NCBI GenBank assembly: GCA_003230915.1
Contig: QIHI01000055.1
Span: 2,282 to 66,281, forward strand
Direction of reading: 5' to 3'
Length of the DNA stretch: 64,000 nucleotides
Source: Kiritimatiellales bacterium
Lineage (GTDB): Bacteria; Verrucomicrobiota; Kiritimatiellia; Kiritimatiellales; Pontiellaceae
Shown piece after piece: positions 47,673-53,720 of the stretch (within the stretch, counting starts at the first letter, position 1; each line of letters begins with the position of its first letter). The notes beneath the pieces are model-generated. The model was not told the origin of the DNA, ran no database searches, and saw nothing but the letters and a program-made list of their open reading frames with translations. The translations under genes and the position numbers were made by a program.

Positions 47673-47731
47673 TTGAATACCCCTATTCAACGAAACTTTA
47701 AGTTTATAAAAAAATTCATAGCGAGCATATA

Positions 47732-47748
47732 AGCAATTTGCTTGCCAA
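47732..47748 (-). promoter_or_regulatory. Sigma54 (-24/-12) promoter
   Basis: The minus strand reads TTGGCAAGCAAATTGCT (GG-N10-GC), 60 nt upstream of the ATG at 47672. Confidence 0.6.
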
Positions 47749-47826
47749 TATCTAGATGCGCCGAAAAGGAATAAGGCTTTCTCACTCCGCCTTGAGAGGG
47801 ATCGTGGGGCTACGGGGCGCGTGCTA

Positions 47827-48366
47827 TTACCGAATAAGCTGGAGGAATTCGTTGCGGGTCGATTGGTCGCGCCGGAAGCTGCCGAGCATGGCCGATGTAA
47901 TCATGCAGGAGTTTTGCTTTTCCACACCACGCATCATCATGCACAGGTGCTGTGCTTCAATCACCACACCGACGCCCTCGGGGGCAATGGTTTCCATGAT
48001 TGAGCTGGCCACTTCGTTGGTGAGCCGCTCCTGGATCTGAAGGCGGCGGGCGAAGAGGTCGACGATCCGTGCGAGTTTGCTGACACCGAGTACCTTGCCT
48101 TCGGGGATATAGCCGATATGACATTTCCCGAAGAAAGGCAGTATGTGGTGTTCGCAGAGACTGTATAGCTCGATGTCCTTTACGATAATCATATGGTTGT
48201 CTTCGACGGTGAAGACGGCATCGTTGACCACATCTTCGAGTTTTTGGCGATAGCCTTGAGTAAGGAAATCCATTGCTTTTGCAGCGCGGTCGGGAGTATC
48301 GAGCAGTCCTTCGCGATCGGGTTCTTCGCCAATTTTTGAAAGCAGGTCTTTGTAGAGTTTGTTCAT
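47827..48366 (-). CDS. folE: GTP cyclohydrolase I
   Basis: [44 protein letters not shown]. Confidence 0.96.
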
Positions 48367-48393
48367 TAAATTCTCCGATTAATTGGCCAGAAG

Positions 48394-50076
48394 CTATGCT
48401 TTCCGGCGCAAGCGTGCAAGTACGATTACGCCTTCAGCCACCATCCAAATCTGTAGCAGGGTAATGACCATACCCATACCGAAAAGGAGCCACTCAGCCT
48501 TGGTATAAAAATCGACGAGATTGATCTTCATGGCCCAACCGGTCATGGCAATCATGAAGATCATGGGAATGGACGTGTAGAAGGTTGGGATTTTTTTCTT
48601 GGCGAGCCAGACGGTGATGACGAGTAGGGCAAGGCCAGCGAGCAGTTGATTGACGGCTCCAAAAAGGGGCCACAGCGCAAGCGCACCCTTTCCGCCTCCG
48701 CTTGAAAAGGCCAGCAGTAGTGCCGTAATGACGGCGATGAAGGTGGCTGGGTGCTTTTTGCCGAGGGCGGGGACTTTGCAGCTTACGGCGATCTCGGCCA
48801 CAATATAGCGCTGAATGCGCGTGGCGGTATCGAGTGTTGTGGCAGCAAAGGATGCAACGAATACGCCCATGAGGGTGATGACCCATTCGCGCGGCAGTCC
48901 ATGTCCGGAAATCATATTGGCTGCACCGGTCACGAACGCGGCAATCTTTGCGCCGAGGCCTTCGGCGGACTGCCAACTGGCATATTGCTGGGTAAAAGCC
49001 TCTGTGCCGGTGTAAGTGATGCCTGCCTTTTCTAGCCCGAGGCCAATACCCGCGCCACAGGCGATCAGTACGATGACCGCCAGCAGACCTTCAAGCAACA
49101 TGCCGCCGTAGCTGATGCCTTGGGCACTGCCTTCCGAGTCGCATTGTTTCGACGAAGTGCCGGAGGAGACGAGACAGTGGAAACCGGAAATGGCTCCGCA
49201 GGCAACGGTAATGAAGAGCAGGGGAAAAATGGCAGGTGCGCCTTCGGGATGCCAATTAACGGCGGGTGCCACCATCGGCGGGTGCGTGACGACGATGCCG
49301 AGTAGCAGAAGTCCCATTGTGATGCAGAGCTGTAAAGCGTTGATGTAGTCGCGTGGTTGCAACAGAACAGTGACGGGTAAGGTGGAGGCGGCGTAGGCAT
49401 AAATGAGGAGTAGCACCACCCACGTTCCAACGCTCAGAGTGGGAAGCAGGTCGGAGGTATACGCCCCGATACCGATTGTGGCATACATTAGCGTCGTGGC
49501 AATGAGGCCGAAGATGATGTGCGACTTGCCTTTTTTATAGACGATGAAGCCGAGCCAAATCGCGATCGGTAGCTGGAGCCACACGGGAATCACGGACTCC
49601 GGAAAAATGCTAAAAACGGAGGCAATTACCACGCCAAAAATGGCGATGACGATCCAGAGCGCGAAGAAGATGATTAGCATGAACAGGAATTTAACGCGTG
49701 GACCGATAATCTCGCCGGCCAAGTCGCCGATGGAGCGTCCCTCGTTGCGTAGTGAGATGATCATCGATCCAAAGTCGTGCACCGCGCCCATGAAAATAGA
49801 GCCGACGAGGATCCAAATCAGCGCCGGTACCCATCCCCAAATGATGGCGATCGCAGGCCCCACAATTGGCCCCGTCCCGGCAATCGACGTAAAGTGGTGG
49901 CCGAATAGAACCAGCTTGTCCGTAGCCACAAAATCAACCCCGTCATGGTGTGTTTCACTCGGGCATTTATTGGAGGGATCGACCTTGAAAATCTTCTTCG
50001 CCAGAAAGCGGCCATAGGTGTTGCAGGCCACGAGGTAGAGGGTTGCGGAAACCAGTACGATGACTAATGAATTCAT
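48394..50076 (-). CDS. cstA: Carbon starvation protein A family transporter
   Basis: GHHFTSIAGTGPIVGP, GAVHDFG, LQPRDY, ACGAISGFH, TTLDTATR, LWPLFGAVNQLLA. Confidence 0.92.
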   Translation of the reverse strand: MNSLVIVLVSATLYLVACNTYGRFLAKKIFKVDPSNKCPSETHHDGVDFVATDKLVLFGHHFTSIAGTGPIVGPAIAIIWGWVPALIWILVGSIFMGAVHDFGSMIISLRNEGRSIGDLAGEIIGPRVKFLFMLIIFFALWIVIAIFGVVIASVFSIFPESVIPVWLQLPIAIWLGFIVYKKGKSHIIFGLIATTLMYATIGIGAYTSDLLPTLSVGTWVVLLLIYAYAASTLPVTVLLQPRDYINALQLCITMGLLLLGIVVTHPPMVAPAVNWHPEGAPAIFPLLFITVACGAISGFHCLVSSGTSSKQCDSEGSAQGISYGGMLLEGLLAVIVLIACGAGIGLGLEKAGITYTGTEAFTQQYASWQSAEGLGAKIAAFVTGAANMISGHGLPREWVITLMGVFVASFAATTLDTATRIQRYIVAEIAVSCKVPALGKKHPATFIAVITALLLAFSSGGGKGALALWPLFGAVNQLLAGLALLVITVWLAKKKIPTFYTSIPMIFMIAMTGWAMKINLVDFYTKAEWLLFGMGMVITLLQIWMVAEGVIVLARLRRKA

Positions 50077-50175
50077 TTTTATTTTCCGGGACGTTCCTGG
50101 AACAGCCAGGTTGAGTTCTTATCCAAAACAGTGAAAGATATATCAAGTCCGGTGAAGATATGAGAGCCGAAATGA

Positions 50176-50387
50176 TTGATGATCTTGAACGTGAAGACCG
50201 GATTATAAGGAGGGCGATCTCCTCTTCTTTGGTTCGAATCGTCTATTCGTTTCTCTAGAACTGGGCGTAACATCTCTCCGATCACCATTTGTTAAGCTTG
50301 TCGGGCACAGTTGAATACGGCTTGAGTTTATCCACCGCTCCTGATAGTCGAAGAGCATCGCATCTTGGCTGTGATTTTTATATTCAT
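50176..50387 (-). mobile_element. Degenerate IS5-family transposase N-terminal remnant (two frameshifts)
   Basis: Joined frames give MLFDYQER/VDKLKPYSTVPDKLNK/VIGEMLRPVLEKRIDDSNQRRGDRPPYNPVFTFKII, matching the IS5/DUF772 pattern F-D..R..KL....LE.L...I.WE.FRP.L...GRPPYD.V.MFKI. Confidence 0.65.
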
Positions 50388-50471
50388 AAGAGATATGACT
50401 CCTCCTCTTCTGTCTTAAACTCAAATGTCCGGCTAAAACTCGGGTTAATTATGATATTACTAAGTCTTGTA

Positions 50472-51488
50472 TTATTTCTGCGGTGCGATGCAGAGGAGGC
50501 GGGTTTGTCCGTCAGGAGTAGTATCAAAGCTGATAGAACCGTTAACCTGATTGGCATGATGTTGCATTAGCTCTATGCCTAGCCCTAATTCTGGTTGCAC
50601 AGGCATAGGCCTCCCATTATTTACCACGGTCAGGTAATAGGCATTTTCTTTTAGTTCGAGACGGATTCGCACCAAATCCGCCTTTGCATGGCGTATGGCA
50701 TTTGAGACGGCTTCGTGGGTAATGCGGTATAACTGATATTGAAGGAATTTAGGAAAACTTCCATATTCGCTTCCAAAGTCTAACTCAAAATCAGTCCCAG
50801 CGGTATCCCGGAAATTATCGGCCAGTTTCTGTATTGAAGAATTAAATATTGTTTGATCATTGGTGATAAAAGGATCAACAAACTCAAGATTTTGGATAAG
50901 GGCGATACTTTTCTTTGTTAAGTTGTTCAGGCGGGTTGCTTCGACGGATTCTGATCTGCCTTCGGCAATTAGACGGATTACAAGGGCTTCACTTTCTTTC
51001 AGCATGTTGGACAAGGATTCACCAAGGTCTTTTAGCAACGTTTGGTTTAACAAAGCCTGTATCTCTTCGTGATTTTCAATAATATAGTGGCGTAGTCGGT
51101 TCAATTCTTGTGTACGCATTTTAACTTTTTTCTCAAGTAGCGCATTTAAGTGATCCAGCTGATCTTTTGCGGATTTTAGCAAAGCAATCATTCCGGAGAT
51201 AAAGAGCTGGGTTATAATACCAAAAAGATTGAAGGCTTCGCTCCAAATGACGGGGTTGTTGGAGGAATATACAAGCATGACGTAATGGTAGGGAATGGTA
51301 AGTAAAGTTGTGAATAACCATCCTGGATAGCGGTACAGCCACGCTCCAACTATTGATAAGGCAATGGAAAACAGCATGACAGTTATGCCGAATATAGGGA
51401 AAACAAGTAGTGTAAGCAGAATATATATCAACCATGCGGAAGCATAGACGGTAAATTTTCGGGGTCTTATGTTTCTGCCTTCAAGCAC
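50472..51488 (-). CDS. Membrane HisKA_3-type sensor kinase homologue lacking the phosphoacceptor His
   Basis: N-terminal TMs, coiled coil, H-box reads TLLKDLGE, CA domain EAVSNAIRHA / VVNNG / GLGIELM. Probable GTG start at 51488 overlaps the upstream stop. Confidence 0.8.
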   Translation of the reverse strand: MLEGRNIRPRKFTVYASAWLIYILLTLLVFPIFGITVMLFSIALSIVGAWLYRYPGWLFTTLLTIPYHYVMLVYSSNNPVIWSEAFNLFGIITQLFISGMIALLKSAKDQLDHLNALLEKKVKMRTQELNRLRHYIIENHEEIQALLNQTLLKDLGESLSNMLKESEALVIRLIAEGRSESVEATRLNNLTKKSIALIQNLEFVDPFITNDQTIFNSSIQKLADNFRDTAGTDFELDFGSEYGSFPKFLQYQLYRITHEAVSNAIRHAKADLVRIRLELKENAYYLTVVNNGRPMPVQPELGLGIELMQHHANQVNGSISFDTTPDGQTRLLCIAPQK

Positions 51489-52494
51489 AGGATGCCGTTT
51501 CCCTGTACGCGTGGTTATACGGAACTTGGCATTCAATAATAGTCTTGTTGTCAAAGTTATGAATGGTTAGGTGTCCTTTTATCTGTTTCGCTCTGTAGCG
51601 CATTAATTCCGATTCCATGTTACCCTTTATCAGATTGGTTTCATCACTTTCAATGCGAAGGAGGTAGCTTCCGTGGTTGCCGAAAAGAGCGATGTTAATT
51701 TGGCTGGAGGTCCCGTACCGCAGGGCACTCAAAATTCCCTCATAAGTGATACGGTAGAGGTGAAGAATCGTCTGATCCGATAGATGTTGGTGGAAATTAT
51801 CCAGTTGAACATCGAATTTTAGGCCGGTGGTTTCGGTGAAATAGGAGGTGAGTTCATTTAGAGCCGCTTCAAAACCGGTTACCGAAATTCTTACGGGAAA
51901 GAGGATCCTGGAAGCTTTTCGGGCAAGATGAAGGTTTTTTTTTGCGCTTTCTGCTAAGGCGGAAGCTCGAGCTGCCTCCTCTGATTTGTTGTCGTGTAAC
52001 TCGGTCTCCAGCGAACTGCTGTACAATAATACTCCTGTAAGATATTGACCCAACCCATTGTGGATATTATGAGCTAGATTAATCCTCAAGGTTTCATCCT
52101 CAGAGATCAATCGGGTTGTAAGCACATCGAGCTCATGCGTACGTTCATTTGCTTTTTGGTCGAGTAGAGTCGAAAAATTCTTTGCTTGATCTCTCATCCG
52201 TTTAGTTGTTCCGGAGATAATAGCGACAAGTATCCCAATGCCCGTTCCAAAAGCTTTTGTCTGATAGGTTTCTAAAGTATCTCCATTATGGTCTAGCAGG
52301 AAATAAAGGTAAGGCTCAAGGCATAGTACGATCAGTAAACTGACTCTAACTCCATATAGCCACCCGCCAATGGCCACCAATAATACAGAGGGAATCATGA
52401 TGCTGGTTTTATAGACGGGAAACCAATGAAAGCAAAACACTAGATACAAAAACCATACTAGCGCATATAGAATATGTTTGAGTACTGTCACCAT
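51481..52494 (-). CDS. Membrane HisKA_3-type sensor kinase homologue with a degenerate ATP-binding domain
   Basis: N-terminal TMs, H-box AHNIHNGLGQYL, CA domain EGILSALRYG / IESDETN / NMESELMRYRA. Confidence 0.8.
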   Translation of the reverse strand: MVTVLKHILYALVWFLYLVFCFHWFPVYKTSIMIPSVLLVAIGGWLYGVRVSLLIVLCLEPYLYFLLDHNGDTLETYQTKAFGTGIGILVAIISGTTKRMRDQAKNFSTLLDQKANERTHELDVLTTRLISEDETLRINLAHNIHNGLGQYLTGVLLYSSSLETELHDNKSEEAARASALAESAKKNLHLARKASRILFPVRISVTGFEAALNELTSYFTETTGLKFDVQLDNFHQHLSDQTILHLYRITYEGILSALRYGTSSQINIALFGNHGSYLLRIESDETNLIKGNMESELMRYRAKQIKGHLTIHNFDNKTIIECQVPYNHAYRETASCA

Positions 52495-52637
52495 TCATAA
52501 TCTACCAAAAGGGAATATCGTTAACCACTTTTTTGTAAATATGATGACAGCATAGATAGTTCAAATATTCCTGATCGACTAATTAAGACCAAATTCCGGT
52601 TGTGGCGGATAGGGCGTTTATCTAGAATGCACGAATT

Positions 52638-53720
52638 ATGAAAAAAACGCCGCTGCATGGGCAGCATATCGAACTCGGTGCTCGTATGGGTGAATTCGGC
52701 GGATGGGATATGCCCATCCAGTACGCTGGCATTCTTCAGGAACACCACCACACACGCACAAAAGCTTCAATTTTTGATATTTGCCATATGGGCGAATTTG
52801 AACTTAGTGGTTCAACTGCCTCCAATGACTTAGAACGGTTACTCACCTGCAACATCACATCTATAGCCATCGGACAAGTACGCTACGGCTTTATGCTTAA
52901 TGACGAGGGCGGGGTGATCGACGATCTTACCTGCTACCGTCTCGACACCGACCGCTACATGCTCGTCGTCAATGCCGGTACGGCTGGTGTCGATGCCAAA
53001 TGGATCCAAAGCCATGTTTCTGCAGAAACGCAATTTACCGACCTCTCGCCCTCCATGGCTAAGCTCGATGTGCAAGGCCCAGAATCACGCAACGTATTAG
53101 AGGATGTTTTTGGCTGCCCGTTACCCGAACTTGGTTATTTCCGCTTTAAGGAGTTTCAGGCCATGGATGCCTCCTGCATTCTCAGTCGCACGGGCTATAC
53201 CGGTGAATTAGGCTACGAAATCTATCTCCCCACTAAAGCTGTCAGCCGATTCTGGGACAAGCTTCTCGAACACGATCTATGCGAACCCAGCGGACTCGGC
53301 GCGCGCGATACGCTTCGCCTTGAAATGGGCTATCCACTCTACGGCCAAGAGCTTTCCGCCGCCCGTACCCCTGTTGCCACTTCGCGAGGGGCTTTCATCG
53401 ACCTAAAAAAAGAATTTGTCGGGAAAGCCCATATTCAAAGCGATATCGATGATCCCTCGGTGCAGTTGATTGGCTTGGTCTTTAACTCTAAGCGAGCTGC
53501 CCGCGAGCACGACAAGATTTATTTTGATGGGATTAAAATTGGCGAAGTCACCAGCGGATCTCTCGCCCCTAGTCTTGGCGTGGCTGTGGCCATGGCCTTT
53601 GTCGAATTCGAATTCTCTGAACTGGGCAGAGAACTCCAGGTCGAGATTCGCGGGAAACAATTTCCGGCAACGGTGGTTAAGCTGCCATTCTACGCGAATG
53701 GAACCGCCCGCGGTGGATGA
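52638..53720 (+). CDS. gcvT: Glycine cleavage system T protein
   Basis: KTPLH, FGGWDMPIQY, FDICHMGE, SRTGYTGELGYE, LGARDTLRLEMG. Confidence 0.96.
   Translation: MKKTPLHGQHIELGARMGEFGGWDMPIQYAGILQEHHHTRTKASIFDICHMGEFELSGSTASNDLERLLTCNITSIAIGQVRYGFMLNDEGGVIDDLTCYRLDTDRYMLVVNAGTAGVDAKWIQSHVSAETQFTDLSPSMAKLDVQGPESRNVLEDVFGCPLPELGYFRFKEFQAMDASCILSRTGYTGELGYEIYLPTKAVSRFWDKLLEHDLCEPSGLGARDTLRLEMGYPLYGQELSAARTPVATSRGAFIDLKKEFVGKAHIQSDIDDPSVQLIGLVFNSKRAAREHDKIYFDGIKIGEVTSGSLAPSLGVAVAMAFVEFEFSELGRELQVEIRGKQFPATVVKLPFYANGTARGG

Follow-up and report, generated by a model that had tools for sequence, protein, structure and literature searches.

Two overlapping genes on the minus strand of a stretch of DNA from Kiritimatiellales bacterium (64,000 nucleotides (nt) of contig QIHI01000055.1, assembly GCA_003230915.1; hereafter the window), here called A and B, probably encode one membrane sensor kinase of the HisKA_3 class (DesK/LiaS/NarX) that is split over two paralogous subunits: B would supply the ATP and would phosphorylate the histidine of A in trans, a reading to which we assign a probability of about 0.6. 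A first-pass annotation of the window had proposed a split of this kind from complementary defects in two paralogous reading frames. Both open reading frames (ORFs) are indeed present, and their products are paralogous over their full length, with 24% identity over 326 amino acids (aa; E = 2e-29). The pair is laid out as follows:

51481-52494, minus strand: gene A, an ORF of 337 aa; the His-bearing sensor subunit, a putative phospho-acceptor and phosphatase whose catalytic domain has degenerated
50472-51488, minus strand: gene B, an ORF of 338 aa; His-less subunit whose ATP-binding catalytic domain is intact by sequence
51481-51488, minus strand: the 8 nt shared by A and B, which hold the A stop codon TGA (51481-51483) and the B start codon GTG (at 51488)

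Overlaps of 1, 4 or 8 nt between the stop of A and the start of B recur in 14 of 17 related pairs, an arrangement that indicates translational coupling. For B, the GTG at 51488 is the most likely start; the longest ORF extends to 51554.

The product of A can be divided into the following domains, alignment A1 being a set of 27 A orthologues:

52201-52494, minus strand: transmembrane input (residues 1-98), in which hydropathy and an AlphaFold2 (AF2) model place four hydrophobic helices linked by very short loops
52093-52200, minus strand: linker of the signalling-helix type (residues 99-134); its ER[T]xEL motif is also in B (A1 and A2 consensus)
51880-52092, minus strand: domain for dimerization and for histidine phosphotransfer (DHp; residues 135-205)
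51484-51879, minus strand: pseudo-catalytic domain (residues 206-337), which keeps the Bergerat fold and has lost the N-box Asn, G1 and G2

The phosphate-accepting part of A is well preserved. His145, encoded by the CAC codon at 52060-52062 within AHNIHNGLGQ, and Gln150 are both kept, and across alignment A1 the invariant residues of the DHp domain are His145, Gly149, Gln150, Leu152 and Thr153. The window's A has lost the N-box Asn as well as G1 and G2, and the Pfam scores agree with the motifs: HisKA_3 matches at 19.4 bits, below its cut-off of 24, and HATPase_c does not match at all. When the A-type profile was compared with known kinases, it matched the DHp and catalytic domains of DesK (E = 5e-12), and the AF2 model of A (predicted local distance difference test (pLDDT) score 90.4) superposes its pseudo-catalytic domain on the catalytic domain of VraS with a TM-score of 0.82 and a root-mean-square deviation of 2.1 Å. 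As modelled, the four-helix, short-loop architecture of the transmembrane part is of the intramembrane-sensing type.

The state of B is complementary, as the first-pass annotation had recognized:

51180-51488, minus strand: transmembrane domain (residues 1-103), where B is most strongly conserved
50853-51068, minus strand: DHp-like helical hairpin (residues 141-212), with Leu152 in place of His and without DxxxQ
50475-50852, minus strand: catalytic ATP-binding domain (residues 213-338), a short-lid Bergerat fold

Four hydrophobic helices with very short loops again form the transmembrane domain, and are followed by a long helix that runs straight into the DHp-like hairpin. At the position of the phospho-accepting His, the CTA codon at 51033-51035 encodes Leu152, within TLLKDLGE, and among B-types no replacement phospho-acceptor His is conserved near the H-box or in the DHp region. 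Against Pfam, B scores 38.9 bits for HATPase_c (cut-off 26.4) and has no HisKA_3 match; the B-type profile matches the catalytic domain of VraS with E = 8e-20, and the family profiles also match DevS/DosT. The AF2 model of B has a pLDDT of 82. Invariant in B-types are N263, A264 and H267 of the N-box, N290 and G292 of G1, and G302 and G304 of G2.

The one unusual feature of this ATP site is that G1 reads N-N-G, where VraS and DevS, when aligned, have D-N-G; the B Asn also lies opposite an Asp in DesK. This Asp-to-Asn change had been feared to be a defect of B, but it is not peculiar to B: the same Asn is present in 29 of 81 His-bearing and otherwise complete HisKA_3 relatives. Because complete relatives share it, the Asn is no argument against ATP binding, and it reads as a trait of the wider subfamily and not as damage specific to B.

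Taken singly, neither protein is a complete member of the HisKA_3 class. HATPase_c and the His do not occur together in A or in B; the HDxxxQ box that holds the phospho-accepting His is represented in A by H145 and Q150, as HNxxxQ (IHNGLGQ), and is absent from B; and no cognate NarL/LuxR-type regulator is adjacent. As a pair, they show the division of motifs expected of a split kinase in the sense of PMC3591291, with a His protein without an ATP site and an ATP-site partner without a phospho-acceptor. The phosphatase motif expected on the His-bearing half is present as well, as the Gln at H+5.

The complementary pattern is not confined to the window but is kept across its genus. Among 53 genomes of Pontiella, 36 carry an array. 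Wherever the contigs permit judgement, it holds exactly one B-type gene, preceded by one, two or three A-type genes, and neither type is found alone. No full-length relatives of A or B were found outside the genus among 401 genomes of the class, and a profile search of 1.84 billion representative proteins returned ~30 clusters of B and ~35 of A before ordinary HisKA_3 kinases were reached. The A-types that we examined comprised 20 in the motif table, 11 in the arrays inspected and 37 A-like hits of a library search. The H-box His is kept in every one of them (37/37 for the library hits), and is invariant in more than 60 sequences, down to ~25% identity. The Gln at H+5, which in the DxxxQ motif of HisKA_3 is the phosphatase position, is kept in 36 of the 37 library hits and is invariant in alignment A1. 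The N-box Asn, whose loss had been listed among the defects of A, is gone from the window's A as claimed, but its loss does not characterize A in general, as 16 of 37 A-types keep it. The G2 glycines, on the other hand, are gone in all A-types except those of two cassettes with an intact A, and by motif comparison it is their loss that is the universal defect of degenerate A-types. In B-types, the residue at the His position is L, M, I, C, Y, F or V, and never His.

Three long proteins from other organisms (P0069, P0089 and P0143; 1066-1335 aa) each contain two HisKA_3-type modules in one chain. The LHD box of the first module is normal, and in the second module Tyr stands where the His would be (QLYNQ); the ATP site of the second module is intact in P0069 and P0089, and for P0143 the match to the ATP motifs came as a stretch of its own. 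It is possible that these double modules are a fused counterpart of the two-gene arrangement.

Both genes are under purifying selection, including the halves that have lost their function by motif. We calculated the ratio of nonsynonymous to synonymous substitution rates (dN/dS) by the Nei-Gojobori method against the nearest relative, the metagenomic locus L036 (71-74% identity), and obtained values of 0.235 for A and 0.163 for B. The expectation of a dN/dS below 1 holds for each degenerate domain as well. Within A, the DHp domain gives 0.076 and the pseudo-catalytic domain 0.26-0.38; within B, the transmembrane domain gives 0.11-0.15 and the His-less DHp-like hairpin 0.08-0.22, so that the vestigial halves are still constrained. 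Across orthologues, conservation within A is highest in the DHp domain (14/71 columns at ≥90%) and lowest in the catalytic-like domain, whereas in B the transmembrane domain is the best conserved (14/103 columns at ≥90%, entropy 1.57) and the DHp region the least (3/72 columns). The constraint on the two proteins is thus mirror-imaged, with the DHp region at the top in A and at the bottom in B.

To place A and B among other kinases, we turned to phylogenetic trees. In the maximum-likelihood (ML) tree, A and B form one clade as against canonical kinases (support 99), and the duplication that had been proposed as their origin follows from this. B is monophyletic (support 99) and A is split into two groups, the three meeting at a fork that the tree does not resolve. 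The subclades of A and B mirror one another. Co-inheritance is also apparent from distance matrices, those of A and B being correlated with r = 0.89 (Mantel p about 2e-4), as compared with 0.27 and 0.20 against GcvT.

The order in which the two functions were lost can be read from two metagenomic cassettes, L079 (8001-10228) and L082 (2301-4393), in which the gene in the A position has its His, N-box, G1 and G2 all intact and the adjoining B has Cys at the His position. By this combination of motifs, the two cassettes are evolutionary intermediates: because an intact A adjoins a His-less B, and every sampled cassette has a His-less B, B lost its His first and the ATP site of A decayed later, and only once an ATP-competent, His-less paralog was encoded alongside. 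The subfunctionalisation that was originally suggested stands in so far as the losses are reciprocal; they were sequential, however, and not symmetrical, as every B is His-less while two cassettes retain a complete A. In the ML trees of A and of B, the intact-A cassettes are nested in one subclade beside degenerate ones (clade supports 95 and 99), which favours two independent losses of the A ATP site, although a single loss is also compatible with approximately unbiased (AU) tests (p = 0.19 and 0.07). This order of loss is, in our view, the strongest indirect argument that the catalytic domain of B can serve the His of A.

The cassette occupies a characteristic place in the genome, and the genes and the spacer next to it in the window are:

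52638-53720, plus strand: gcvT, divergent from A and the conserved left border of the cassette
50077-50471, no strand assigned: the spacer between B and cstA, 395 nt as compared with 39-146 nt in relatives
48394-50076, minus strand: cstA, of the carbon-starvation/pyruvate-peptide transporter family (Pfam CstA, E = 1.5e-135), downstream of B
47827-48366, minus strand: folE, GTP cyclohydrolase I, a conserved downstream neighbour

Arrays usually sit between the divergent gcvT and cstA, and in 18 of 22 loci the next gene after B, co-directional with it, is cstA. From this conserved order, cstA is likely an operon partner of the pair, and it is plausible that the transporter is its target or a co-sensor; folE is probably outside the signalling system. 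In L036 (2339-2752), the closest relative of the window cassette, cstA is missing between B and folE, and only a 71-aa ORF is found there. The spacer after B had been described as an IS5 scar, a description that we could not substantiate: its small ORFs match nothing in Pfam or NCBIfam, and its 395 nt are not repeated elsewhere in the genome. PADLOC returned no match that would point to a role in anti-phage defence, and a scan of 47700-52800 for promoters and terminators yielded nothing above chance.

When the cassette of the window (50472-52494) was compared with its flanks, using L031, L021, L018 and L025, the two were found to have different histories. Judged by the flanking proteins, genome G013 is the nearest to that of the window, with 79% (GcvT), 88% (CstA) and 92% (FolE) identity, yet identity falls to 29% for A and 31% for B, which are of different deep types in the two genomes; relative to G023, the flanks are less alike than those of G013, yet A and B are 44% and 50% identical. 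The GC content of the cassette is below that of its flanks in 17 of 18 loci (0.426 versus 0.525 in the window). From these comparisons, A and B behave as one fast-evolving unit, whose two members are exchanged or sorted together while the locus stays the same.

Divergence within arrays is concentrated in the sensor. Two arrays that consist of three A genes and one B are instructive in this respect: in that of G049 (L084 6639-10850), A2 and A3 are 26% identical in the transmembrane domain and 94% in the DHp domain, and in that of G007 (L016 7491-11528), A1 and A2 are 40% and 90% identical in the same domains. Such divergence, lying mostly in the transmembrane domain, suggests a rapid diversification or swapping of the sensor part, and fits A paralogs that are alternative sensor subunits sharing one output and one catalytic partner. 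One may go further and imagine a modular receptor in which one B serves up to three interchangeable sensors, A1-A3, and at least three deep cassette types are exchanged as a unit at gcvT|cstA between close species, in the manner of specificity groups (pherotypes) or of an arms race, possibly tied to sensing through or for CstA. We regard this as a tentative idea that is more apt to fail than to hold; a pattern of this type has not been described for split kinases. A second cassette of another type, in which A is intact, lies away from gcvT-cstA in G001 (L024, contig C10, 7831-9634); its B is ended by a TAA stop codon (256 aa), and the other cassette of G001 (contig C74) is complete.

Motif states and their conservation, purifying selection, co-inheritance and gene order are all direct observations; from them we infer complex formation, trans-phosphorylation, an output regulator and the kind of signal. 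Complex formation is favoured indirectly, by the translational coupling, the strict co-occurrence and the co-divergence of A and B. The intact catalytic domain of B would bind ATP and phosphorylate His145 of A in trans, either in an A:B dimer or in a higher hetero-oligomer, and A would then pass the phosphoryl group to a response regulator of the NarL/LuxR type. Through Gln150, at the DxxxQ position, A may also dephosphorylate the regulator, perhaps when it is free. The input may be intramembrane, with four transmembrane helices per subunit and the signalling helix leading to the DHp domain, or may come through a partner such as CstA. Where an array has two or three A genes, these would be alternative sensor subunits that differ in their transmembrane domains and share a single B. 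That the pair might act as an AND-gate for two membrane inputs, as was suggested at first, is speculation.

No response regulator adjoins the pair, as had been noted for the window and as is the case in 17 loci; in the window's genome, the nearest receiver domain is ~16 kb away. The output is probably through an unlinked, orphan regulator of the NarL type. This genome (1.9 Mb, 92.7% complete) contains two HisKA_3 systems and two NarL-type regulators, one of which adjoins a canonical 444-aa HisKA_3 kinase on contig C73. The other regulator, of 221 aa on contig C32, has no adjoining kinase, and its orthologue in the complete genome G049 is likewise an orphan. Of the 36 array-positive genomes, 34 have an orthologue of the orphan (55-80% identity), as compared with 5 of the 17 array-negative ones. 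By elimination, the orphan on C32 is the best candidate for the output, and we offer it as a lead. An attempt to match A with this orphan through shared best NCBIfam hits (MctS/MctR) was dropped, as the canonical pair on C73 yields the same best hits. The orphan regulator (L033 1042-1707; L085, G000 contig C32) has a DUF1189 membrane protein on one side and a convergent ackA-pta pair on the other; a PAS-HisKA hybrid kinase is encoded ~1.8 kb upstream of it, and a short integrase-like ORF just before it.

The alternative that we take most seriously, and consider unlikely but far from negligible, is that the pair is not a kinase and that no phosphate is passed between its members. A would then be a phosphatase of a regulator or a phosphotransferase like ChpT or Spo0B, and B a pseudokinase like DivL or RetS that modulates A or the kinase on C73, with nucleotide binding serving as a conformational or energy-state signal. 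ChpT and DivL are indeed among the fold matches of the A model, and A keeps the phosphatase Gln150 but has, in the lineage of the window, lost the acidic residue after the His. The cassettes with a complete A imply that B was at first an accessory to a self-sufficient kinase, and nearly all genomes of the genus, including those without the pair, have a canonical HisKA_3 kinase with its regulator. The invariance of the A His is difficult to accommodate here, however, as a pure phosphatase would not need it, and the residues of B that contact ATP are all invariant as well. Furthermore, the ATP site of A decayed only where B was present, twice if the ML trees are followed, and a stoichiometric enzyme would account better than a modulator for the strict arrangement of at least one A with one B and for their translational coupling.

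A second alternative, which we judge quite improbable, is that B is the sole active enzyme and phosphorylates a substrate other than A, for instance a Ser/Thr target, as do the anti-sigma-factor kinases of the same ATPase superfamily, and that A has no part in catalysis. Although B has a weak match to HATPase_c_2 (21.8 bits, below the cut-off of 27.4), it is paralogous to A along its full length and shares its layout of transmembrane part, signalling helix and DHp-like hairpin; no anti-sigma or STAS partner is encoded nearby, and a B-only enzyme leaves the tight co-evolution of A and B unexplained. Finally, a decaying duplicate, in which one or both genes are nascent pseudogenes and the complementarity is a coincidence, has next to no probability: despite the low GC content of the cassette, the long, odd spacer beside it and the stop codon in the B of one related second cassette, the frames are intact, the same defects are found in about 36 genomes at 25-50% identity, dN/dS is 0.16-0.24 and the remaining catalytic residues are invariant, and conservation and dN/dS together rule it out.

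A number of points weigh against the split kinase. If autophosphorylation were strictly cis, an A:B dimer would be inactive, and whether kinases of the DesK type act in cis or in trans is not settled in the literature that we searched. We know of no kinase in which the Asn variant of G1 has been tested. In the window's own subclade of A (the window's A and relatives with at least 65% identity), the box is HN instead of HD, with Asn and not the acidic Asp after the His. In HisKA kinases, the kinase half-reaction depends on an acidic residue at this position, so that Asn in its place may weaken phosphorylation of the His or bias this lineage towards the phosphatase, making its A a poor acceptor. 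As for the candidate regulator, it is present in five genomes without the pair, two of which are 92-94% complete, and its association with the arrays is confounded by the relatedness of the genomes. Lastly, a search for transcripts found no RNA run with DNA of the window, only the conserved genes of relatives.

Histidine kinases are textbook homodimers, and in EnvZ and NtrB mutants lacking the His and mutants lacking the ATP site complement each other, as one His and one working catalytic domain are enough for autophosphorylation in trans. Those were engineered mutants of homodimers, however, whereas the Pontiella arrangement is naturally fixed. Separated EnvZ domains are cited in PMC3591291 (Amin, Porter and Soyer, 2013), which describes how CheA3 and CheA4 of Rhodobacter sphaeroides, with ATP binding and the phospho-accepting His on two proteins, are a kinase only together; in that split kinase, the His-bearing part also has phosphatase activity. 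CheA3 and CheA4 are soluble, belong to another kinase class and lack whole domains, unlike A and B, which are full-length membrane sensors that each retain the lost half in vestigial form.

The Fas kinases of group A Streptococcus are taken to be AgrC-like (HPK10 type). FasB and FasC of the FasBCAX system, which were characterized genetically in 2025, are tandem paralogous membrane kinase-like proteins with six transmembrane helices each, and the ComE-like regulator FasA is encoded in the same operon (PMC12675982). The kinase domain of FasB is sufficient, whereas FasC needs His246 and its own kinase domain is dispensable; in two-hybrid assays, a FasB/FasC heterodimer was seen and no homodimers (PMC12675982). 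The Pontiella pair is alike in that tandem paralogous membrane genes provide the catalytic domain from one and the His from the other, here at the level of sequence. It differs in that it is HisKA_3/DesK-like, its regulator is unlinked and there are one to three His subunits per catalytic subunit; moreover, FasB retains its DHp His, while the Pontiella B has none and the reciprocal loss is visible in the motifs across the genus. The resemblance lies in the proposed mechanism and not in homology.

Rv0600c and Rv0601c of Mycobacterium tuberculosis, one with the ATP-binding domain and the other with the His domain, are known not as paralogs but as one kinase gene cut into two pieces of domain size, beside its regulator. 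Both of these sensor-kinase genes serve a single regulator, TcrA (PMC3544749). The best relatives of A and B in sequence and fold, DesK, VraS, LiaS and UhpB, share with them the transmembrane bundle, coiled coil, DHp domain, short-lid catalytic domain and HDxxxQ box, but unlike A and B are single-polypeptide homodimers encoded beside a NarL-type regulator. A resembles ChpT in combining a DHp His with a nucleotide-blind Bergerat-fold domain, and B resembles DivL in having a kinase fold without a phospho-accepting His. ChpT, Spo0B and DivL, however, act in separate pathways with other partners, whereas A and B are paralogous, co-translated and co-evolving, and A, unlike ChpT, is a membrane sensor coupled to B. 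Split and heterodimeric kinases are thus already established; what sets the Pontiella pair apart is the HisKA_3/DesK class, the complete absence of the His from B, the constrained vestigial domains, the arrays in which several A genes go with a single B, the intermediates that survive and a diversification like that of cassettes.

For annotation, the consequence is that each gene taken alone would be labelled a histidine kinase, intact or degenerate, and two orphan kinases would be counted where there is one pair. Natural obligate hetero-oligomeric histidine kinases are few, with CheA3/CheA4 joined by FasB/FasC since 2025, and Pontiella would add a case of the DesK class that extends across a genus, in which one catalytic subunit is apparently common to several sensor subunits. 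With one His and one ATP site, the pair would be a clean natural test of trans-autophosphorylation, and its surviving intermediates would reveal in what sequence of losses a homodimer turned into an enzyme of two genes.

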